The notes below the pieces were generated by a model. It worked only from the letters and a program-made list of their open reading frames with translations. It made no database searches and was not told the origin of the DNA. Below, in pieces: positions 9,638 through 27,581 of a stretch of 28,022 nt of DNA. Both the position numbers and the translations under genes were made by a program. The stretch lies in IMG/VR virus record IMGVR_UViG_3300032242_000323, positions 1-28,022 of that record, one strand, 5' to 3'. This DNA comes from a virus (Duplodnaviria; Caudoviricetes). The first letter of the stretch is position 1. Every line of letters starts with the position of its first letter.

Positions 9638-10747
9638 ATGCCAACATCAACCTCGGTCTCGTCAGCCTTAACTGACGTACCAGCAATATTAAAACCATAC
9701 ATTACTGATGCTGGTGGAGTGCTTCCTACCGCCCAAAAACTTACTAGTCAAACCTATGACCAAATGTATGGCAACGCTTTAAACGCTGCTGGTTTAGCTG
9801 GTTCTGGTCGTGTTGCTGGCTTGTCTAATATGCAACAACAAGTTGGCACAAGTTTAACTGGAATGACAACTCCAGATCAGTTTGCTGCTGGTACAAGTGC
9901 TGCAAATCAAGGTTTAGCTTCCTTGGGTCAAGCAACCGATGCTTATGGAAACGTTGGCACTGTAGCCAATCAAGGTTTAACCAACTATCAGATGGCTGGT
10001 CCGCAAAGCTATACTGGCGATCAAGTAAGCCAATATATGTCTCCATATATGCAACAAGTTGTTGATGTGCAAAAACAAGCTGCTTTACGAGATGCTCAAA
10101 AACAATTAGTTGGTGCTAACTTAGCTTCTTCCCGCCAAGGCACTTATGGCGGCGCTCGTAATGCTTTAATGCAGTCTGAAGCGGATCGTAACTTGCAAAC
10201 TCAAATGGGAACTATTCAAGCTACTGGTAGTCAGAATGCTTTCCAAAATGCGCAACAACAATTTAATACGAGCCAACAACAACAACAAGCTGCAAACCAA
10301 GCTAATTTAAACGCTAACCTTAGCGTACAACAGTTAGGTTCAGCGCAAAGTATGGAAGCTCAAAAGGCAAACCAAGCTGCTGCTTTGGCAAAAGCTCAGG
10401 GTTATGGCAATCTTGGTCAAACATACAACCAATCAGCATCCACACTGGGCGCACTGGGTACAGCAGATCAAGCTGCAAAAATGGATATTCTCAAAGCTCA
10501 AGGTGCTTATGGAGATCTTGAGCGTAACGTTCAGCAAAACCAACTTGATGCTCAGTACAATGATTTGATGTCCCGTTTAAACCAACCATTGACTAACGTT
10601 GAAACAATGAACAACTTAGCTCGTGGTGTTCCGTTGACGCAAACTGGCACAACTACGACAAATACAACTCCACCTCCAAGCTTTGCAAGTCAACTTGCTG
10701 GTACAGGATTGACTGGTTTATCACTCTACAATATGTTTGGTAAATAA
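9638..10747 (+). CDS. Internal virion/DNA transfer (ejection) protein 2
   Basis: SD AAGGA. Gln/Ala-rich coiled-coil, YMSPYMQQVVD and GTYGGAR motifs, hydrophobic Gly-rich C-terminus. Confidence 0.7.
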   Translation: MPTSTSVSSALTDVPAILKPYITDAGGVLPTAQKLTSQTYDQMYGNALNAAGLAGSGRVAGLSNMQQQVGTSLTGMTTPDQFAAGTSAANQGLASLGQATDAYGNVGTVANQGLTNYQMAGPQSYTGDQVSQYMSPYMQQVVDVQKQAALRDAQKQLVGANLASSRQGTYGGARNALMQSEADRNLQTQMGTIQATGSQNAFQNAQQQFNTSQQQQQAANQANLNANLSVQQLGSAQSMEAQKANQAAALAKAQGYGNLGQTYNQSASTLGALGTADQAAKMDILKAQGAYGDLERNVQQNQLDAQYNDLMSRLNQPLTNVETMNNLARGVPLTQTGTTTTNTTPPPSFASQLAGTGLTGLSLYNMFGK

Positions 10748-12726: not shown

Positions 12727-15700
12727 ATGGCAATTACCGCTCAATTATTTGACGGGACAACTTTAGAGTTTCCTGATGATACCGATAAGTCAATCATTCA
12801 AGACACTGTAAAAAGGTTAACTGAAGAAAAACAAGTTAAGCCTGACACTGGATTTACTGGTGCTTTTAAGTCTGGAACTGAACGCTTTAAAGGCGATGTA
12901 GCTGCAGTTCTTGGTCGTACTGGTATTATGAATACCGAAGCTGCAGAACAATATAAAGCTCACAAAGAACGTCTTGCAGAGAAGATGTTTACACCAACTC
13001 AAGAGGGTTGGTCAGAAGCTCCATTTACAAAGTTTAAAGAAACCCTTGGCGGTTCTCTTCCATATACTGCCGCTCCATTGGCTGTTGGTCTTGGCGCAGC
13101 AGCACTTCCAGCAATAGGAGTAGCAGCCCCAATAGCCACTGGCATTGGTATGGCTGGTGCTGGTCTTGCTTCTTTAGGTCAATTTACAGGTTCTAACCTT
13201 TCCCGCCAAATGCAGGAAAACCCTAATCTGCGTTTAAAAGACACAGACTTAATGGCTGCTGGTGCTGCCGCAGTTCCACAAGCAGCATTAGACGTAGTAT
13301 CTTTGCGCATGATTCCTGGCATTGGAAAGATATTTGGCGCTGCTGGAAAAGAAGTTACTCCAGAACTTGCTAAACGAATTGCGGAACAGGGAATTCTTAA
13401 AACTGCTGGATACTATGGCGTAGAAGGCGTTAAGCTTGCTGGCAAAGAAGGTGCTACCGAAGCTGGTCAACAGTTCTTTGAACGCTTACAAGCTGGTTTA
13501 AACATTGCTGATGAGCAAGCCCGCAGCGAATATTTTGACAACTTTATTGGCGGCGCAGTTCTTGGTGGCGCATTGTCTGTTCCTGGTGTCGCTATTGAGC
13601 GCCGTAATATTGTCAAGCAAGGCGCTCAGATGGAAGAAGAGCAAAAGCGCCAAGCCATTATTGATCGTCAAAAAGCTCAACGTGAAGCTTATTTAGCAGA
13701 GCAAGAACAACTTAAGCAGACCTCACAGAACCTTGGAGTACCAGAAACATTGGCTCTTCCAGCTCCAGAAGAGAAGCTTGAAGCTATGCCAGAAGAAGTT
13801 GATCCATTGATCAACCCATTGGGTCGCTTTAAATCTACAGACCTTAGCCCGAAAGAAGTGGCTGAAGTTAACAAGCGCAGAAAAGAAATGGGCAAACCCC
13901 GCATTGGTCATACATTTTCTATTGAGGATTTGGCTGATGTATTTACTATTCCCAAAAACCTTGATCCCACAGATCCAGAAGATCAAAAAACTATCCAACA
14001 AATTCAACAGAATAAAGATGGAATCCTTAACCGCTTGGTAGCTGCTCGTACTGGATACCAAGCTGGGCAAGACTTTGCACCACAAACGATTGAGTTATCG
14101 GCACAACAACGTGGTATAGATACTAGAACCCAAGGGTTTAAAGACTTTCTTACTAGGGTCGCTGGCGAAGAAGACCTTACTGCTATGTCTCCTCCTCAAC
14201 GTGTTGCAGTTGCACAAGCACTTCAAAACGTCAAACCTGGCGAAGAGTCTCGCATTCTTGAGGCTGGTATTAGTAACGCTAAACACTATACCGCAGAACA
14301 ATACAACGATACTATTGCTGGTCTTCATAAAGAATTTAAACAAATGGGCAATCAAGAGAACGGTAGAAGTAGCGTTCTTAAGCTTATTGAAAAATACAGC
14401 GGTCTTAAAAATGAACGTGATCAACAACGTATTTTGGATGAGGCGGTTAAGAATGGTGACTTTGAGCGCAACTTAAAAGTTAGCTCAACAGGTCATAACA
14501 TTGAAACGCTTAAACCAGCCGAAGCTATTACACCGTTGCCAGGCGGAATGGACATCCGTAAAGAAACGTTTAAACAGGGTGAAACTCCTGAAGCCTTTGT
14601 TGTACGTGCTGGAAGCAAGGTTTTAAGTTCAGTCGAGACTGCTGAAGAGGCTGACCGTGACCTGGCTGCGCATGAACAAAATCGTCAGGCTGCCGTTGTA
14701 AACACCCAAAAACAAATCCAAGGAATCCAAAACGGAATTAATGCTCGTAATGCCGAGTTGAACCAAATGCAATCTTTAGGTCAAGATCAGACCGATGAGT
14801 TCTTTACTAAGTCAGCCCAGTACTATGGTGCGGATCAACAAGCCAATGCCGCTATAAACGATTTGCGCCAGAAACAACAAGAATTTATGGAGCCTGTAAG
14901 GGTTATCCCTGTAGGAACCAAGCCTGTCGCTAAGGAAAGTTACACTTTTTACGAAAAAGATCAGCCACAGGTTAAGTTTGATACCGAAGAACAGGCAGAA
15001 CAATATGGCATTAGCCGCCTAGATGATGCTACTTTAGAGCAAATTATTAGATCTGCCCCCCATCAAAAGCAAACTGGGCGAGTAAAACGCTATGCAGACT
15101 TGGCTCAGAAGGAGCTAGATGAGCGCAATTCACTTGAATCAGAGCGTGGCATAGCCGTAACCACAACCCAAGGACTAAAAGGCTCTAAAGAGCGTTTAGA
15201 GAAGCTTGGCATCTATAACAAAGAAGTCCATGACAACCTTGAGAAACTGCGTCAAACCTTATTACCAGCACTAAAACGCTATGGCTTGGAGAAGGTAGCT
15301 TTACGTATTCTCAATAGCATTGAAGATGGCAAAGCTGATGGCTACTATATTGAGCAAGTTATGGCTATTGCGCTGGATGCTAAGAATCCTATGGGTACTT
15401 TGCGCCATGAATCTATCCATGCGCTTAAAGAATTGGGTGCGTTTACCCCACAAGAGTGGAAGATTCTTGAGAACAAAGCTAAGTCTGAATGGGTACAGAA
15501 GTACATCAAGGATGCCAATCTGTATGAGTCTTACAAACAACAGTACATTGCCGAGCATGGCAACCTAGTTGGGTTTGAACCATACATCCAAGAAGAAGCT
15601 ATTGCTGAGGCGTTTAAACACTTTAAGGTAGGAACCCTGCCAGCAGGTATGATCGGTAACATTTGGTCTCGTTTAAACAAAATGTTTGAAGCGCTGCGCA

Positions 15701-18700
15701 ATGCATTTAACAAACTTGGTTTCCAGACTAGCGAAGACATCTTTAACAAGATTGAACAAGGCGAGAAGAAGCCTAAAGAAGCTGGTCAAGCACAAGCTGG
15801 TAAATACGACTTAACCAAGCGTATTGATATGACGTTTAAAGACGTTACAAAGCGTGTACCGCAATTGGTTGCTGCTGCCAAAAAAGTTGCTTCTGGCGAG
15901 ATGACTGCCGCTCAATATGATAAGTTGGTTAATAAGTACAAACCTATCTTGCCTTATGATTTTATTCCAGAGCCAGCTACGGCAAAAGAAGCTATTGATG
16001 CTTTAACTTCAGACAAAAAGCCTTTTTATGGAAAGACCGATGAAATTCCAAATGGTCATCCAGTTGGCTTGCGTTTAGACATCCCAGCATATAAAGACCA
16101 CGGTGTTTGGGTCAACTCTATTCACAATGAAGGTGCAAAAGGCTCAATGCCAAATGCGGTTTATTCCAATGTGGCATCTATCAAGAATGCTAACTTTGAA
16201 ATAACAGAAAGAAATCAAGAAAGATTTTTAGATTTTGCCCAAGAAGCAGTCAGCGCAAAAGGCGAAAAACAAAACAAATTTACTGGCGCTCGCATCTATG
16301 GAAATTGGAATCCAATGAGCGAGAAAGAAACGGTTGCAACTGCCAAAAAAGTCTTAAACAATCCAGCATGGTCACAAGTTGGCATGGATCCAGAGCGTCA
16401 TAGTTATTTTTATGACAGAAAAACAACGCAACCAATTGTTTCTGCTGATGAAGTAATTCAAATTGGTCCGCTGGTGTTTGCTAAAAACCCAGTATATTCA
16501 TCCAAGAAAAACTTTAAGTACTCATTGCGTACTAATGCGTCAGAAGCCGACCTTAAGAACTCTTTAGCTGACAAGCGAGTGTCTCCACGTTTGCCAATCT
16601 CAGCAAAAAATACCGAAGATGTTTATGGCGTAGATCGTTTGCAACCAGACTTAAATACATTTAAAAAGGAAGCGGTTCCTTTTAATAAAAATATTGAAAT
16701 CCTGAGCAAGTATCCAAATTTTGAAGGATTGACTGGTAGTAATGAAGAAAAAGCTAACAGCATGGTTGATCAGATGGTTGATAACCTTATGTGGTTATTT
16801 AATCATTGGAAGCCAGAACTGCGTGAGCGCTCAAGATTGTGGTACGTTGGTGGTAACAGAATTTCTACACGTTGGTCTGAACGTTATGGTTTGCCAGCAG
16901 AAAACATTGCCGCAGTTATTGCCGCATTAAGCCCACAAAAAGATTGGTTCCAAAACGTTAGATTGGGCGAATCAATTTTAGATGCTATGGTGTTTAACAG
17001 CACTACACCTTGGGACGAATCCATGTCTGCCGTTCTAAATAATCGGGAATGGGGCAAAAAGTTTTCTAAAGAATTAAAGTATTCTCCTAGTCAACAAATC
17101 TCTCGCTTCCAAGGTAAAACTTTAAAAGATTTATATGACCCAAAAGATGATGCATCTTTATTGGATATGGCTGTATGGATTCGTGCGTGGGATGAAGCAA
17201 AGAATCCACAGGTCGCTAGAGTCATTACACCAGAGGGCAACTTCTCAAATGATGTGGATGTTGGTAAAACTGGCAAACCAGTAGCTTTAAGAGCGCAGGG
17301 CTTTAATGCCATGACTAAAGCGCTAAAAGCAATCCAAGCTAAAGGTGTTCAAGAAATTTCTGAACTGATTGGCGCAAACCACAAAGTTCGTTCCTTCTAC
17401 AACAATATTATTGCGCCGTTTGATAAAGACGATGTAACCATTGATACCCATGCGGTTGCCGCAGCATTACTCAGACCACTTGGATCTAGTGATGCTGAGG
17501 TTGGTCACAACTTTGGTTCATATGCTCCTAAGAGTGCAATAACAGGTTTAAACGGTACATACGCTTTATACGCCGAAGCGTATCGCAGGGCTGCTGAAAA
17601 AGCTGGTGTCTTACCTCGTGAGATGCAGTCCATTACTTGGGAAGCAGTACGTGGTTTATTTAGACCTGAACAAAAAACAGACACCAATAAAACCAAAGCT
17701 GATAACATATGGAAAGAATATGCAAATGGAAAAATCACCGCAAATGAAGCAAGAGAAAAAATCTCTGGAATGGTTCAGGGGATCAAAGACCCAGCTTGGG
17801 TTAGATCCACTGCTGGAAACAATGAAACAGAGACAGATTCCACTTACAAAGGAGAATTACCTCAAGTTAGCGTACCCAGCGGAAATGAAAATATCTCCAG
17901 AACAACTCCAAGAAGTGCCAAAAATTCTAGAGTAAAAGAGAAGTTTTCTTTACGTGCTCCTGAGACACCAGAATTCAAACAATTCTTTAAAGATACCAAG
18001 GTTGTAGACAATGATGGCAAGCCAATGCAAATGTATCACGGCACTGCTGAAGACTTGTTTACTGTATTTGATAAAGCAAAAATTCGTGCAAGCGATTACG
18101 ACACACCATTCAATGGCTTTTGGTTCTCTAATGACAAATTTACATCGCCAGCAATGCGTGATGCAAAGAATACAATTCCTGTTTATTTAAACATCAAGAA
18201 CCCAGCCCCAAGCGAAGCATGGAGAAAAGTTTCTAAAGATGTATACAGAGAGTCTGATGAAGGCAGCTTAGTTTTAAGCAAGGGTTCTCGTTCAGAAGGT
18301 GATGAAATTAGAAATCGTTTGCAAGCTATGGGATACGATGGTGTTCATTATGGTGGCACACCAGACATAAATAAAAACGAATTTGAAAAAAATGGTTACA
18401 CAAGCTTTAAAGATTTGTCTGGTAAATCGTACACAATTGCCAAGAATGATGAAAACGGCGGGGTGGATTTATACAGTGGAAAAGTAAATGAAAAGCCAAC
18501 CTATGAAACTGAAGAGCATATTACTGGGTATTTAGACCTTAATGACTTTTTAAATACATTTGAAAATGAAGTTTGGGTAGCATTTGAGCCTAATCAAATT
18601 AAATCTGTAACAAACGAAAAACCAACAGAATCAGAAGACATTCGTTATTCTTTGCGCAGCCAGCTATCTGATGATTTAAACGAGCGTATTGGTATCACTA

Positions 18701-21177
18701 CAACCAAGCGTCAAGAAAAGGGTTATGTTGACCGCATCATTGATGCAATCTCTCCAACTGCCATTACTCGTATCCGCCAAGGTTTAATTAATAAATATGA
18801 GTCTATCGAACAACTATCCCGCTTGCGTGGCGAAAAGATGGGCGGGGATCAATTGTTGGCAGAGAACTCAGCAATTGCGGCGGCATTGCAATCTGATCGT
18901 GCCGCTGGTATTGCCGCATCCTCTTTTAGAGATGGCGTTCCAGTACTGGACAAAGGCTATACATACGTTACTGATATGGATGGCAAGGTTAAAGGTCTGA
19001 TCCCGATTCTTGAGCCTTTGATGAAGTACAAAGACCCATACATCTTCCAAACATTCCAGTACTATGCTGGTACTCGTAGGGGTAGAAGGCTTGATGCCGA
19101 AGGTCGTGAGAAGACTTTCACCAAGGAAGACATCGCCTACGGCAAAGAATTAGAAATGCAGTTCCCTGAGTTTTCCGAAGTATTTAATGAATATCAAAAG
19201 TACAACCAAGGCTTGGTTAAGTACATGATGGACACTGGAGTTATCTCCGCACAAGAAGCCAAAACATGGACTGAGAATTGGGATTACATTCCGTTCTATC
19301 GTCAACTAGAGGGCGAGAAAACGGCAGGACCGAAGGTCTTTTCTCCAATTGCTGGTGTCGCTAAACCTAAGAAACTTAAGGGTTCTGAAGCTCCATTGGA
19401 TGACTTCATGGAAACAATCGTGCGTAATGCACGTGCGGCAATTGAAGCTGGCATGAAGAACGAAGCGGCTCGCAGAGTCATTCGTGATGTTACAGACTTT
19501 GGTTTAGGGGAAAGACTTCCTAGTTCACAGTCAGGATCTGATGTTGTTTCCGTAAAAGAAAACGGCATGACAGTCTACTATCGTGTAGCTGACCCACTTT
19601 TGGTTGAGTCTCTTAAGGGTTTAAACCTACCACAGCTACCGTTTATGGATTTCTTGTCAGCGCCAGCCAACTTGCTGCGTAATTTTGTTACCAAAGACCC
19701 AGGCTTTATTATTGCCAACTTAGGTCGTGACTCAATGCAAGCTTGGATTACCAGCGGAACCGACATGAAACCTCTGGTTGATACGTTTAAACAGTTTGGC
19801 AAAGAGCTTGCTGGTCAGTCTCCTGAAGCATATGCTTTGGCTAAAGCTGGTCTGACTGGCTATGATTTTGCTGGTGATGTTAAATCTACCGCCAAACAAG
19901 TTGAAAAAGAATTGCGTAAACGCAGTGGCGCTAGGACAAAAGGCGAGCAAGCACTACTTCCGTTAACATCATTCTGGGAAATGCTTGAGCATGGTTCTCA
20001 TGCATCCGACATGGCAACCCGTGCCGAGGTTTACAAGCGTACCCTTGAAAGAACAGGTTCAGAGGCTGAAGCTTTTTACCAAGCAATGGAGGTCATGAAC
20101 TTCTCACGCAAAGGTAACTCTGCCGTAATCCGCATTCTTTCTGCAATGATTCCTTTCTTTAATGCACGTGTCCAAGGTCTAGATGTTCTGTACCGCACAG
20201 GCTTTGGCAAGACTGCAATGGAAAATAAAGAGACAATTCAAAAAGCATTTATTTTCCGTTCAATGGTTCTATTGGGTACATCAGTTATGTACTGGGGTCT
20301 CATGCAAGACGATGATGACTATAAAAAGCTATCCAAAGAAGAAAAAGATAACTATTGGATTATTCCAGCGATCAAGATTGGCGATAAGCCATTCCGTTTT
20401 CCTATTCCGTTTGAATTGGGCGTACTCTTTAAGGTTCTTCCTGAAAGAGCGCTTGAGTATTCTTTTGGCACGGACACAGGAAAAGACTTGCGGGAATCAT
20501 TATTCCGTAATGCTATGAGCACTCTGTCGTTTAACCCTATACCTCAAGCAGCATTGCCATTGGTTGAAAACGCTACAAACCACTCGTTCTTTACTGGTGA
20601 ACCAATCATAGGCAAAGGTGTAGAGGGTCTTGCTCCACAATTCCAGTTTGGCGCTGGAACATCTGAATTTGCTAAGAAATTGGGCAAAGAGTTAGGGTAT
20701 TCCCCACAAAAGATAGATAACTTAATTCGTGGATATACGGGAACAATGGGTAGCTACGCAATGATGATGATGGATTCAGCCCTTACCCAAGAGGGAGACT
20801 CGGTCAAAGCTGCCAAGCGCATGGAACAATTGCCAGTCCTTAAGCGATTCTTTGCTGGTGATATGGGCAATATTTCAGCTTATTATGATTTAAAACAAGA
20901 GGTTGACACAGTTGTACAAACAGTTAATACTCTGCAACGTACTGGTAATTCCGATGATTTAAAAGAATATTTGGAAGAAAACAAGAAGTTGTACGCATTG
21001 AAGAGTTATATTGGTGTATTGGATAAAAACATGAAACAATTCAATAACATGGCTAAGATGATTAATGCATCTAAAACTATGACTGCTGATGAAAAACGAG
21101 AAGCTTTAGACAAGATTCATGAAGGTCAATTGAAACTTACTGAGCGTGTACGAATACTAAGAAAGCAACAAGAATAA
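12727..21177 (+). CDS. Large polyvalent virion/ejection protein: N-terminal membrane-interacting region, HExxH metallopeptidase, unknown domain, HhH-GPD glycosylase-like domain, ART-PolyVal-like ADP-ribosyltransferase, LPD38-like C-terminus
   Basis: 2816-aa uninterrupted ORF. Motifs: HESIH (15406-15420) plus EEAIAE; SPQKDW, KVRSFYNNI, VTIDTHA (17434-17454), MQSITW; FKQFF..KVVD..GKP..MYHGT, GFWFS, PVYLNIKNP, GYDG, VAFEPNQIKS; NFSRKG, PFFNA, PIPFELG, IDNLIRGYTG. Confidence 0.85.
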   Translation: MAITAQLFDGTTLEFPDDTDKSIIQDTVKRLTEEKQVKPDTGFTGAFKSGTERFKGDVAAVLGRTGIMNTEAAEQYKAHKERLAEKMFTPTQEGWSEAPFTKFKETLGGSLPYTAAPLAVGLGAAALPAIGVAAPIATGIGMAGAGLASLGQFTGSNLSRQMQENPNLRLKDTDLMAAGAAAVPQAALDVVSLRMIPGIGKIFGAAGKEVTPELAKRIAEQGILKTAGYYGVEGVKLAGKEGATEAGQQFFERLQAGLNIADEQARSEYFDNFIGGAVLGGALSVPGVAIERRNIVKQGAQMEEEQKRQAIIDRQKAQREAYLAEQEQLKQTSQNLGVPETLALPAPEEKLEAMPEEVDPLINPLGRFKSTDLSPKEVAEVNKRRKEMGKPRIGHTFSIEDLADVFTIPKNLDPTDPEDQKTIQQIQQNKDGILNRLVAARTGYQAGQDFAPQTIELSAQQRGIDTRTQGFKDFLTRVAGEEDLTAMSPPQRVAVAQALQNVKPGEESRILEAGISNAKHYTAEQYNDTIAGLHKEFKQMGNQENGRSSVLKLIEKYSGLKNERDQQRILDEAVKNGDFERNLKVSSTGHNIETLKPAEAITPLPGGMDIRKETFKQGETPEAFVVRAGSKVLSSVETAEEADRDLAAHEQNRQAAVVNTQKQIQGIQNGINARNAELNQMQSLGQDQTDEFFTKSAQYYGADQQANAAINDLRQKQQEFMEPVRVIPVGTKPVAKESYTFYEKDQPQVKFDTEEQAEQYGISRLDDATLEQIIRSAPHQKQTGRVKRYADLAQKELDERNSLESERGIAVTTTQGLKGSKERLEKLGIYNKEVHDNLEKLRQTLLPALKRYGLEKVALRILNSIEDGKADGYYIEQVMAIALDAKNPMGTLRHESIHALKELGAFTPQEWKILENKAKSEWVQKYIKDANLYESYKQQYIAEHGNLVGFEPYIQEEAIAEAFKHFKVGTLPAGMIGNIWSRLNKMFEALRNAFNKLGFQTSEDIFNKIEQGEKKPKEAGQAQAGKYDLTKRIDMTFKDVTKRVPQLVAAAKKVASGEMTAAQYDKLVNKYKPILPYDFIPEPATAKEAIDALTSDKKPFYGKTDEIPNGHPVGLRLDIPAYKDHGVWVNSIHNEGAKGSMPNAVYSNVASIKNANFEITERNQERFLDFAQEAVSAKGEKQNKFTGARIYGNWNPMSEKETVATAKKVLNNPAWSQVGMDPERHSYFYDRKTTQPIVSADEVIQIGPLVFAKNPVYSSKKNFKYSLRTNASEADLKNSLADKRVSPRLPISAKNTEDVYGVDRLQPDLNTFKKEAVPFNKNIEILSKYPNFEGLTGSNEEKANSMVDQMVDNLMWLFNHWKPELRERSRLWYVGGNRISTRWSERYGLPAENIAAVIAALSPQKDWFQNVRLGESILDAMVFNSTTPWDESMSAVLNNREWGKKFSKELKYSPSQQISRFQGKTLKDLYDPKDDASLLDMAVWIRAWDEAKNPQVARVITPEGNFSNDVDVGKTGKPVALRAQGFNAMTKALKAIQAKGVQEISELIGANHKVRSFYNNIIAPFDKDDVTIDTHAVAAALLRPLGSSDAEVGHNFGSYAPKSAITGLNGTYALYAEAYRRAAEKAGVLPREMQSITWEAVRGLFRPEQKTDTNKTKADNIWKEYANGKITANEAREKISGMVQGIKDPAWVRSTAGNNETETDSTYKGELPQVSVPSGNENISRTTPRSAKNSRVKEKFSLRAPETPEFKQFFKDTKVVDNDGKPMQMYHGTAEDLFTVFDKAKIRASDYDTPFNGFWFSNDKFTSPAMRDAKNTIPVYLNIKNPAPSEAWRKVSKDVYRESDEGSLVLSKGSRSEGDEIRNRLQAMGYDGVHYGGTPDINKNEFEKNGYTSFKDLSGKSYTIAKNDENGGVDLYSGKVNEKPTYETEEHITGYLDLNDFLNTFENEVWVAFEPNQIKSVTNEKPTESEDIRYSLRSQLSDDLNERIGITTTKRQEKGYVDRIIDAISPTAITRIRQGLINKYESIEQLSRLRGEKMGGDQLLAENSAIAAALQSDRAAGIAASSFRDGVPVLDKGYTYVTDMDGKVKGLIPILEPLMKYKDPYIFQTFQYYAGTRRGRRLDAEGREKTFTKEDIAYGKELEMQFPEFSEVFNEYQKYNQGLVKYMMDTGVISAQEAKTWTENWDYIPFYRQLEGEKTAGPKVFSPIAGVAKPKKLKGSEAPLDDFMETIVRNARAAIEAGMKNEAARRVIRDVTDFGLGERLPSSQSGSDVVSVKENGMTVYYRVADPLLVESLKGLNLPQLPFMDFLSAPANLLRNFVTKDPGFIIANLGRDSMQAWITSGTDMKPLVDTFKQFGKELAGQSPEAYALAKAGLTGYDFAGDVKSTAKQVEKELRKRSGARTKGEQALLPLTSFWEMLEHGSHASDMATRAEVYKRTLERTGSEAEAFYQAMEVMNFSRKGNSAVIRILSAMIPFFNARVQGLDVLYRTGFGKTAMENKETIQKAFIFRSMVLLGTSVMYWGLMQDDDDYKKLSKEEKDNYWIIPAIKIGDKPFRFPIPFELGVLFKVLPERALEYSFGTDTGKDLRESLFRNAMSTLSFNPIPQAALPLVENATNHSFFTGEPIIGKGVEGLAPQFQFGAGTSEFAKKLGKELGYSPQKIDNLIRGYTGTMGSYAMMMMDSALTQEGDSVKAAKRMEQLPVLKRFFAGDMGNISAYYDLKQEVDTVVQTVNTLQRTGNSDDLKEYLEENKKLYALKSYIGVLDKNMKQFNNMAKMINASKTMTADEKREALDKIHEGQLKLTERVRILRKQQE
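17720..17935 (+). CDS. Candidate overprinted small protein in the +1 frame of the giant gene
   Basis: MQMEKSPQMKQEKKSLEWFRGSKTQLGLDPLLETMKQRQIPLTKENYLKLAYPAEMKISPEQLQEVPKILE*. The host frame here is a low-complexity linker with atypical codons. Start uncertain (ATG 17720, 17726, 17744 or 17822). Confidence 0.55.
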   Translation: MQMEKSPQMKQEKKSLEWFRGSKTQLGLDPLLETMKQRQIPLTKENYLKLAYPAEMKISPEQLQEVPKILE

Positions 21178-21192
21178 TCCACGGAGGCTTTT

Positions 21193-22155
21193 TTGACGAA
21201 ATACTTTCTTACCGATGATCAATTTATAGAATCTTGGAAAAAAACAGGTAGCCCTCAAAAGTTTGCAGAAAAACATGGCATGGATGTCCGTTCTGTATAT
21301 AACAGAAGACGATCTATTGAGACTAGATTAAAAATTCAATTACCAAGTTTAGATGATACTAGATATTCTCCACTTAGAAAGTTAGAGCAAGTCATTGGGA
21401 ATGCTAGACGAGGTATCAAAATGGAAAAGGGCAGAGTGGTTGTTTTCTCCGATGCTCATTTCTGGCCCGATGACTACACAACCGCATACAAAGCTCTACT
21501 TCAAATCATTAAAGAGTTTAAACCTAAAGTCGTTGTGGCTAACGGCGATGTTTTTGATGGAAGTCAAAATAGCAGACATCCGAGAATCGGCTGGACTCAT
21601 AGCCCCTCAGTCCGAGAAGAGTTGGAAGCCTGTCAAGAGTTCATGGGAGGCATTGAAAGGGTCTCTAAAGGCTCTGAATTAATATGGACTATGGGTAACC
21701 ATGACGCACGATTTGAAACGTTCCTAGCCGCTCAAGTTCCACAATATGAGGGAGTATCAGGGTTTACCCTTAAAGACCATTTTCCTTTATGGAAACCATG
21801 TTGGTCTTATTGGATCAATGAAGATGTTTGCATTAAACACCGCTGGAAAGGCGGGTTTGGAGCTGGTAGGGCTAATAGTTTAAACGCTGGAGTGTCTATG
21901 ATAACGGGTCACACGCACAACCTCGCAGTTCAACCAGTCACTGACTATAATGGAACCAGATATGGGGTTCAAACTGGAACATTAGCCGATCCCAATGCAG
22001 AACAATTTGTCCATTACACAGAAGACGGACCAAAAGACTGGCGTTCTGGGTTTGCTTTGTTGTCGTTTGAACGGGGTAGACTTATGTTGCCAGAGCTAAT
22101 CCAAGTTTGTGGAGAAGACGAATATGAATTCCGTGGCGCTATTCACAAGGTTTAA
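21193..22155 (+). CDS. Calcineurin-like metallophosphoesterase with an N-terminal HTH-like region
   Basis: SD GGAGG at 21183-21187 before TTG. Motifs SDAH, NGDVFD, GNHD, KH, GHTH. Confidence 0.88.
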   Translation: MTKYFLTDDQFIESWKKTGSPQKFAEKHGMDVRSVYNRRRSIETRLKIQLPSLDDTRYSPLRKLEQVIGNARRGIKMEKGRVVVFSDAHFWPDDYTTAYKALLQIIKEFKPKVVVANGDVFDGSQNSRHPRIGWTHSPSVREELEACQEFMGGIERVSKGSELIWTMGNHDARFETFLAAQVPQYEGVSGFTLKDHFPLWKPCWSYWINEDVCIKHRWKGGFGAGRANSLNAGVSMITGHTHNLAVQPVTDYNGTRYGVQTGTLADPNAEQFVHYTEDGPKDWRSGFALLSFERGRLMLPELIQVCGEDEYEFRGAIHKV

Positions 22156-22157
22156 AC

Positions 22158-22505
22158 ATGAAGCTTACCCCAGCTATCCTTCGTAATTTATATTCTGCAA
22201 TCTATTGCATGAAGCCATTTGGTAATTGGGCTATGCCTTTGCCAGAGCAAATTGACTTTATAGTGGATCAAGATCCAGAGGTAATGGGTACTTATTTGTA
22301 TGATGATGGCGGAAAATTTGAACATACCATTACTATTTCAACCAAAAAGTGTGGTCATTTAGCAACAGTTATTAGGGTGCTATGCCATGAATGTGTGCAT
22401 ATGAGTCGTTGGAAGACCAATAAATGGTCACACCACGATGCTGAATTTCGTAGGCGCACCAAAGTTATATCAGACGAACTTGGATTTGACCCGCTCGAAT
22501 TGTAA
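22158..22505 (+). CDS. SprT-like zinc metalloprotease
   Basis: VLCHECVHM (HExxH) followed by HHDAEF, matching the SprT-type H-G/D-x-x-F motif. Confidence 0.75.
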   Translation: MKLTPAILRNLYSAIYCMKPFGNWAMPLPEQIDFIVDQDPEVMGTYLYDDGGKFEHTITISTKKCGHLATVIRVLCHECVHMSRWKTNKWSHHDAEFRRRTKVISDELGFDPLEL

Positions 22506-26407: not shown

Positions 26408-26655
26408 AGCTTTTCCTCTGGTTGTGTTAAGGCTTCAAAACAATGTTTTTCATATAACATTTTATCTATTTCAGCACTATAGGCATCACGCTCCATCCGT
26501 AACTTATCCATCGTTGCCCGATGACTGCTAGTAGATGCGTTCCATGCGGTTTGCCAAGAAAGCCATAGCCATTGAACTACGCTATCGTCTGTTTCTTTAT
26601 TGGTTTCATCTAATAATTTTTTTTTCTTCGCCCACAATAAAAACTCTTCTTTCAT
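26404..26655 (-). CDS. Hypothetical protein
   Basis: 83 aa with a W..WQTAW motif; ATGA-coupled. Confidence 0.65.
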   Translation of the reverse strand: MKEEFLLWAKKKKLLDETNKETDDSVVQWLWLSWQTAWNASTSSHRATMDKLRMERDAYSAEIDKMLYEKHCFEALTQPEEKL

Positions 26656-27581
26656 ATCAACTCCAATGATGGTTGTTTAAGTCTTTCTTTTTGCAACACT
26701 TTGTAATCTTCGTTTAGCTCGCAGCCTAAGTATGATCTGTTTAAACGTTGAGCAACTGCAGCGGTAGTTCCTGAACCCATAAAAGGATCAAGGACTATGT
26801 CACCAACTTTACTTCCCGCAATGATGCAAGGTTCAATTAACTCAGGTGGATACACGGCAAAGTGCGCACCCTTAAATGGTTTGGTGGTAACTGTCCACAC
26901 AGAACGTTTATTAGCCATATCGTAAGACTTTTCCAGCCCCGAATGAGGGCTAAGACCTGATCCCTCGTTGTGGTATTTGCCATCGCTTCTATCCCTTGTT
27001 CCCCAGTCTTCCTTGACAGGCTCTTTAATAGCCTCGTTATCAAAGTAATACTTAGGTTTTTTGGTCAATAGGAAGATGTACTCATGGTTCTTGGTGCAAC
27101 GATCCTTCATAGACTCAGGCATGGGGTTGGGTTTGTGCCAAATGATGTCTTGACGTAGATACCAGCCGTCAGCTTGCAGTGCAAAGGCAACCCTCCAAGG
27201 AATCCCAATAAGGTCTTTCTCTTTCAGCCCAGCCTGTTTGTTTCCACGTCTAGCACAAGACTGCGGTAAGTCTTGGTCTGTATTAGAGACTGTCTGTTTA
27301 ACAAGCGATTGACCTTTGCCTGGTCGGTAGTTGTAGTAGCTGTCCCCCAAATTCAACCACAGCGTCCCGTCATCCTGCAGTATTTTCCATACGTGTTTAA
27401 ACACATCAACAATAGCCGCCACATAGTCGTCAACAGTTTCTTCTAAGCCAATTTGTCCGTTATGACCATAATCTCGTAGCCCAAAGTAAGGTGGTGAAGT
27501 AACGCAAGTTTGCACCTTGACCCCCTCAGTTGCCCAACGTTTCATAATGTCTCGGCAATCACCGAACTCAATGGTATTCAT
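26652..27581 (-). CDS. DNA methyltransferase, N6_N4_Mtase family, beta class (SPPY, likely m4C)
   Basis: Catalytic VTSPPY near the N-terminus, IIWHKPNPMPES, and SAM-binding VLDPFMGSGTT near the C-terminus. Confidence 0.92.
   Translation of the reverse strand: MNTIEFGDCRDIMKRWATEGVKVQTCVTSPPYFGLRDYGHNGQIGLEETVDDYVAAIVDVFKHVWKILQDDGTLWLNLGDSYYNYRPGKGQSLVKQTVSNTDQDLPQSCARRGNKQAGLKEKDLIGIPWRVAFALQADGWYLRQDIIWHKPNPMPESMKDRCTKNHEYIFLLTKKPKYYFDNEAIKEPVKEDWGTRDRSDGKYHNEGSGLSPHSGLEKSYDMANKRSVWTVTTKPFKGAHFAVYPPELIEPCIIAGSKVGDIVLDPFMGSGTTAAVAQRLNRSYLGCELNEDYKVLQKERLKQPSLELI

Follow-up and report, generated by a model that had tools for sequence, protein, structure and literature searches.

A conserved +1-frame gene at the tail of the DUF7178 cassette of phage polyvalent proteins and its putative effector-immunity role

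Does the +1 frame that lies open beneath the tail of a glycosylase-like domain, deep inside a giant phage polyprotein gene, encode a protein of its own, and would such a protein serve as the antidote of the domain that precedes it, as was proposed from the letters of the DNA alone? The window, i.e. the whole stretch of DNA analysed, is a 28-kb virus record (28,022 nucleotides) with a 2816-aa ORF at 12727-21177 in a block of structural genes, and the features needed below are the following.

12727..21177, + strand: giant polyvalent protein gene, 2816 aa, with DUF7178, ART-PolyVal and LPD38 domains
16564..17808, + strand: long DUF7178 domain, aa 1280-1694 (Pfam PF23802, 100.5 bits), the putative effector
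17383..17385, + strand: Lys1553 (G-x-x-H-K), putative catalytic lysine, invariant in all compared rows
17443..17445, + strand: Asp1573 (TIDTH), putative catalytic aspartate, invariant in all compared rows
17744..17935, + strand: nested +1-frame gene, 63 aa, likely coding for a DUF7178 inhibitor; probable start; basis, HMM and selection
17809..17940, + strand: host-frame S/T/N/R/G linker, read through the small gene, with mostly non-synonymous change
18007..18627, + strand: ART-PolyVal domain of the next cassette; relatives have other domains at the same position
20311..20841, + strand: LPD38 domain, 145 bits

The polyprotein gene is found two genes after a match to the PHROG 'DNA ejection protein' (9638-10747, E 9e-6), and from this gene context its product is likely packaged and ejected with the virion. 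Cassette-like K/R-Y/F-SLR boundaries occur at aa 1264, 1739 and 1973, and several shuffled conflict domains are combined with LPD38 and ART-PolyVal, so that by its domains the protein fits the phage polyvalent proteins of PMC5512222. The first cassette (15802-16516) carries the motif RLDIPAY...GVWVNSIH without a Pfam match, metallophosphoesterase and SprT-like genes (21193-22505) are located directly 3' of the polyprotein gene, and a DNA methyltransferase of PHROG 67 lies on the minus strand at 26652-27581; the latter might matter for how the glycosylase-like domain tells self from non-self.

The +1 frame is open from stop to stop over 17552-17935, the peptide quoted for it was reproduced, and its TAA does end 5 nt short of the KFSLR codons (17941). 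The length of the frame was dropped as evidence because synonymous shuffles of the host gene reach it by chance: a +1 stretch of at least 127 codons appeared in 340 of 500 shuffles, and 17744-17932 stayed open in 364 of 500. What speaks for the nested gene is its conservation and the selection on it, and not its length. For five further long +1 stretches of the host gene, and for one in +2, no homolog with a conserved open frame turned up in the relatives' loci, where coverage of the flanks may be incomplete.

The candidate starts in the window are GTG 17606 and ATG 17720, 17726, 17744 and 17822. Frequent +1 stops in homologs, named beforehand as an argument against the gene, are seen in the 5' part of the frame (17552-17743), which is not conserved and carries stops in 11 of 20 tblastn hits; the open frame of the small gene is conserved. 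The modal start in homologs lies 32 codons before the core Pro, i.e. at ATG 17744 in the window, which is the likely start of a 63-aa product, with ATG 17720 and 17726 as alternatives; the 71-aa product suggested earlier, from 17720, probably begins about 8 codons too early. With a start scored as led by a Shine-Dalgarno sequence (SD) at -5 kcal/mol or stronger, such starts were found in 43/46 nested and 17/18 free lineages, as against 12/64 in the +1 frame of the enzyme core and 31/64 in the +2 frame of the same search interval. All three candidate ATGs of the window have a weak SD, as had been remarked, at -3.3 kcal/mol, as against -2.8 to -6.2 kcal/mol for 14 of the window's ordinary ORFs.

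A programmed +1 frameshift, giving a truncated polyprotein with the small domain at its C-terminus, would agree with the +1 frame of nearly all nested cases and with a frame open well upstream in the window. It is very improbable, since 13 of the 46 nested lineages have a +1 stop within one codon of the ATG, the SD-led starts are conserved, and free, +2, inverted and orphan forms of the gene exist.

Profiles were needed to recover the family of the small protein because a single-sequence search gave just one relative, besides a spurious locus, L001. A profile from the first homologs matched 171 proteins, and the full profile search reached 2285 clusters at 50% identity (788 at E 1e-10 or better), of which the best 150 are nearly all short proteins. 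What had been described as an overprint is an old and widespread family rather than a new one. Its consensus, D-x(2)-L-x(2)-M-x(4)-IP[LV]TRENYL-x-LAY-x(4)-P-x(3)-AE-x-E-x(2)-LP, carries the IPLTxENYL motif whose conservation had been put forward for checking, and the peptide of the window scores 52.9 bits against an HMM built without its own sequence, from a homolog set first gathered with an alignment containing the window sequence. The small protein has no Pfam match in the window, none of 91 members matches a PHROG, an Atlas search gave only a 0.75 lead, and tblastn with the family member P0035 had no match among isolate phages; the profile detects a weak nested copy in the phage record OP947163. 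Its model consists of a few short helices (pLDDT 67.6), and among solved folds none was matched at Z 5 or more (best Z 2.9), which is not proof of a new fold. The family core is acidic, with a median net charge of -5 (n = 94), and that of the window is only about -1 by our own count. Within the set P0121, P0122, P0125, P0216 and P0229, the small domain is part of one 315-aa protein whose N-terminus is hydrophobic, and in four proteins the profile matches twice, as tandem copies.

Selection in the overlap was assessed in 28 independent nested pairs, ungapped, with a core identity from 0.75 to below 1 and an overlap identity of at least 0.7. The differences by host codon position were 93/30/418 in the enzyme core and 233/93/37 in the overlap, where the synonymous/non-synonymous counts were 28/257 for the host frame, 193/92 for +1 and 32/244 for +2. 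The window against its four closest relatives (core 28/5/79, overlap 37/27/20) shifts in the same direction, less sharply than the 28 pairs. The changes sit at the wobble position of the +1 frame, which is under purifying selection, and the proposed comparison of frames 0 and +1 thus gave the small gene as the constrained frame and the linker as read-through. The linker in the host frame over the small gene, noticed in the sequence-only reading, is real; its role there has to be reversed, as it is the linker, and not the small gene, that is the passive, unconstrained frame. The codon skew reported for 17797-17940 also holds (AGA for 4/4 Arg and GGA for 3/3 Gly, as compared with 29/143 and 37/207 in the whole polyprotein gene), and it is explained by the small gene, because all seven AGA/GGA codons overlie +1 Asp or Glu codons. 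A selection test on orphan pairs (83 synonymous and 100 non-synonymous changes, third positions changing most) was set aside because these pairs are too divergent.

That the ORF is a mere by-product of the host frame, open by chance, has a negligible probability. Its length is expected by chance and the SD in the window is weak, but a family of 2285 clusters, stand-alone copies, the +1 selection signal and the lack of a conserved open homolog for the other long +1/+2 stretches speak against it, and this reading was rejected on family size, +1 selection and the linkage described below. The hidden gene claimed at the outset is real, to judge by its conserved +1 frame, the selection in its own frame and the stand-alone copies in homologs; annotation pipelines would miss it because it lies within a 2-8 kb ORF. 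None of the sequencing runs listed is an RNA run.

The domain upstream had been called glycosylase-like, and the predicted structure bears this out. DUF7178 scores 100.5 bits in the window against a gathering threshold of 27 and belongs to a long subfamily of about 415 aa, the Pfam model having 193 positions. The AF2 model of the 415 aa (mean pLDDT 94.9) has an HhH glycosylase fold by a moderate match, the best being to the T. maritima Ogg (Z 9.4, rmsd 3.9, 188 aligned), followed by DUF2419 (Z 8.9) and AGOG (Z 7.3), with the first unrelated row at 4.4; the top 22 rows of the wide structural search were glycosylases or the DUF2419 queuine-salvage enzyme. Foldseek matched AGOG at an E of 0.1 only, and the domain has no sequence match to the PDB. 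Accordingly, DUF7178 is predicted, from this model, to be an HhH DNA glycosylase/lyase. K1553 and D1573 stand 20 residues apart and are invariant in all compared rows, the conservation of the lysine being partly biased because it falls within one viral search pattern. Their spacing presumably matches that of the Lys/Asp pair of HhH bifunctional glycosylase/lyases, and by this analogy the two residues would be the catalytic ones. Some alignment columns, among them Y1615, A1616, R1620 and N1654, differ between partner-bearing and partner-less domains, a difference confounded by kinship and search patterns and retained as a lead only.

How strictly the small gene follows DUF7178 was assessed from both sides. 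Starting from the domain, 94 rows were compiled (13 + 80 loci and the window, some redundant, the spurious L001 excluded), and the small gene was scored as present at 20 bits or more. It was found in 89 of the 94 viral rows, a count biased towards close relatives because the best 80 of 582 confirmed stretches were used; the copies divide into 75 nested in +1, 12 overlapping the host stop and 2 free ones. With the rows clustered at 80% DNA identity, 44 of 48 DUF7178 clusters carry the gene, and elsewhere in the 610 kb of these loci it had no match. Starting from the small gene, 77 of 80 viral loci adjoin DUF7178, which is upstream in 75 (44 nested) and convergent in 2, the remaining 3 being at a contig edge. 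The matches sit at the tail of the domain or overlap it, the point that had been proposed for checking, and the gene lies directly downstream of the effector domain in the layout of toxin-immunity systems. In genome contigs with DUF7178 the gene was found in 19/34; the other 15 comprise 4 short DUF fragments, 3 divergent +1 ORFs (by eye) and 8 that lack it. The three named phage records comprise one with a weak nested copy and two without the gene.

The nested copies are nearly always in +1, and the gene occurs also free and in frames 0 and +2. In L064 and L099, whose DUF7178 domains are near-identical, a domain inserted in L064 displaces the small gene, which there has an AAGGAG SD of its own. 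Inverted copies are present in L148 (2941-5612) and L190, convergent with the DUF7178 gene and on the strand opposite to the structural genes, which implies a promoter of their own that may work at times other than late infection. An unrooted FastTree tree of 95 domains has 13 switches between nested and non-nested states and 8 that involve absence, the absences including false negatives; being unrooted, it gives no direction between free and nested. The 38 segments downstream of the cassette fall into 31 families, and Pfam names few of 37 of them (ART-PolyVal 3, GGDEF 1, GNAT 1, MuF_C 1), so that the domain and the small gene travel together across shuffling, as had been supposed.

Copies of the small gene without the enzyme were found among metagenome loci. 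In the best 80 of 160 such loci, DUF7178 is upstream in 37, the contig edge intervenes in 5, and 38 lack the domain; 30 of these 38 are flanked by at least 250 nt on either side and form 28 clusters, and an SD is present in 29 of the 38. Orphan copies, which are typical of the partner in toxin-immunity systems, thus occur in this family. Their neighbours (47 ORFs chosen from 89 listed, covering 33/38 loci) include an integrase or resolvase at 7 loci, and also a primase-polymerase, LacI, a LuxR-family regulator, a kinase and an ADP-ribosylglycohydrolase; the contigs that carry orphans are mostly short. A relic of the DUF7178 tail in the -1 frame was recognised by eye in five lineages (L213, L219, L226/227/229, L233 and L265). 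In the long Acidobacteria contigs L203 and L207 the small gene stands beside a DUF fragment only, and in L203 it sits in an element with integrase- and AlpA-like ORFs (by eye). This integrated element (L203:620-6754) also has replication-like ORFs and a DUF relic that shares the frame of the small gene; nearby is an ORF similar, by eye, to a Cas3 HD domain. In L226/L229 (2160-3165) the ADP-ribosylglycohydrolase directly follows the orphan; it is a possible antidote to ART domains, and the pair suggests an immunity cluster. Cellular orphans are rare, as 0 of 400 sampled genomes of the same phylum, besides the seed genome, matched.

Conversely, eleven DUF7178 loci retain the Lys and the Asp with no detectable partner nearby, and for 8 of them, including the phages zth2-2 and CRP-738, a search of the whole record or genome revealed none, the MAGs being possibly incomplete. 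In L078, L184, L186, L188, L191 and L210 the partner-less domain is closely followed by a shared domain, with 'EVAPDPN' at its beginning, in place of the linker, which may replace the small partner. In L014, L193, L195, L200 and L071 open, protein-like, divergent +1 frames below the HMM threshold follow DUF7178 and are possibly distant or alternative partners.

The small protein might be a positive partner of DUF7178, i.e. a folding chaperone, an activating subunit or a capsid-loading adaptor, since strict two-way linkage in phage cassettes fits any obligate partner. We regard this as unlikely: intact, SD-led orphans exist with the enzyme deleted or reduced to a relic, enzyme copies with both Lys and Asp persist without the small protein, and no in-frame fusion with DUF7178 was found either among the best 150 profile matches, all of 315 aa or shorter, or in a search of longer proteins, where the single match makes the evidence weak. 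Still less probable is an anti-defence factor against host HhH glycosylases (Dag-like) or another host DNA-binding protein, with DUF7178 repairing or protecting the phage DNA. Anti-phage HhH glycosylases do exist, and phage inhibitors are proposed in the passages of 10.1101/2025.10.29.685425 on this subject; the acidic family core and the orphans on mobile elements would also fit. However, a general factor would not stay at the tail of one domain amid 31 downstream families in 38 segments, and a late structural operon would be poorly timed for blocking defence at entry. In short, a role against host glycosylases explains the orphans but not the fixed position, while a positive cofactor explains the linkage but not the orphans.

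The reading we favour, and consider probable by analogy with immunity genes, is that the small protein is a binding inhibitor of its cognate DUF7178 domain, shielding the producer cell during virion assembly; it is preferred because a small acidic gene that stays at the tail of a single DNA-acting domain, whatever its frame or orientation, and outlasts the loss of the enzyme behaves as immunity genes do. The effector-immunity pair first suggested stands in so far as the linkage and the free, inverted and orphan copies fit the pattern of immunity genes, and it is qualified by the DUF7178 lineages without a partner. The main point against it is the eleven partner-less domains that keep Lys and Asp; furthermore, the fold match is moderate and a repair enzyme would need no antidote, and in the window the SD (-3.3 kcal/mol) and the core charge (about -1) are weak. 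According to the proposed scheme, in which catalysis, injection, binding, inhibition and timing are all inferred, the conserved product of about 60 aa would have its own start of translation inside the polyprotein mRNA, bind and inhibit the adjacent DUF7178 domain and hold the enzyme inactive during virion assembly; in the next cell the enzyme, likely injected together with the phage DNA, would act without its inhibitor. As the enzyme lies inside the polyprotein, a downstream immunity gene could be retained by reading through it as a flexible linker, so that domain and antidote would form one in-frame cassette, and the small gene by itself is likely taken up by other mobile elements for protection. 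The broader generalisation, to which we give a slightly less than even chance, is that polyvalent ejection proteins hide antidotes in other frames, weapon and antidote making one swappable cassette, and that satellites, integrative elements and bacteria steal the antidote.

A testable function is thereby offered for a widespread uncharacterised phage domain, a large unannotated family of small proteins is named, and an internal effector domain is seen to keep its cognate partner through shuffling, which makes hidden frames in other polyvalent cassettes worth screening. Should rescue by the small protein be shown, a toxic virion glycosylase could be cloned with the help of the antidote, and the orphans would amount to an anti-phage immunity of a new kind; if antidote theft is true, it would be a previously unrecognised defence against injected virion effectors. 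Within the literature covered, in which few subscription journals are represented, no paper on DUF7178 was found, nor any description of DUF7178, the small family or a nested immunity gene of polyvalent proteins.

Among known systems, the domain resembles the HhH-GPD glycosylases (Ogg2/AGOG, EndoIII) and the anti-phage Dag in its predicted fold and in the Lys and Asp 20 residues apart, and differs from them by its 415 aa (about twice Ogg2), its 7-14% identity and its phage-borne position within a polyprotein. Ugi and p56 are small acidic phage inhibitors of the DNA-mimic type that block the host uracil glycosylase, of another fold, and the small protein would be like them a small acidic glycosylase inhibitor, putative here, its model (pLDDT 67.6) reaching a best Z of 2.9. 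The Rz/Rz1 genes of phages are likewise nested in +1; they encode lysis proteins, unlike the pair described here. Phage-borne effector-immunity pairs are known from MuF polymorphic toxins with IapK-type immunity, which, in the passages of PMC12226406 that deal with them, share with the present locus a multidomain protein of the virion that includes an enzyme domain, with an immunity gene behind it, and in which the immunity protein inhibits by direct binding. In those passages, however, the MuF toxin is C-terminal and the immunity gene plainly downstream, whereas here the domain often lies inside the protein, its partner occupies the +1 frame of the same gene, the families are other ones and inhibition is putative. 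With the polyvalent proteins of Iyer et al. 2017 (PMC5512222, as far as its relevant passages go) the protein shares LPD38, ART-PolyVal, shuffled cassettes and a proposed injection with DNA; the words 'glycosylase' and 'overlapping' are absent from the main text of that paper, and the passages covered mention no cognate nested partner, as the matched places of PMC7824862 mention neither the DUF7178 domain nor such a partner. Orphan immunity genes are known from interbacterial toxin systems (PMC12483513), and the partner gene here is like them intact without the enzyme, sometimes with a relic, the putative effector being a phage virion domain and not a secreted bacterial toxin. In classical polymorphic toxin-immunity systems the effector is C-terminal, whereas here it lies within the protein, both in the window and in 75 of the 89 rows that have the partner; the small gene and DUF7178 may thus work like a polymorphic toxin-immunity pair and are not filed as a classical one. 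On this comparison the locus holds a real and widespread hidden gene and represents a new variant of effector-immunity organisation, with the effector-immunity role putative.
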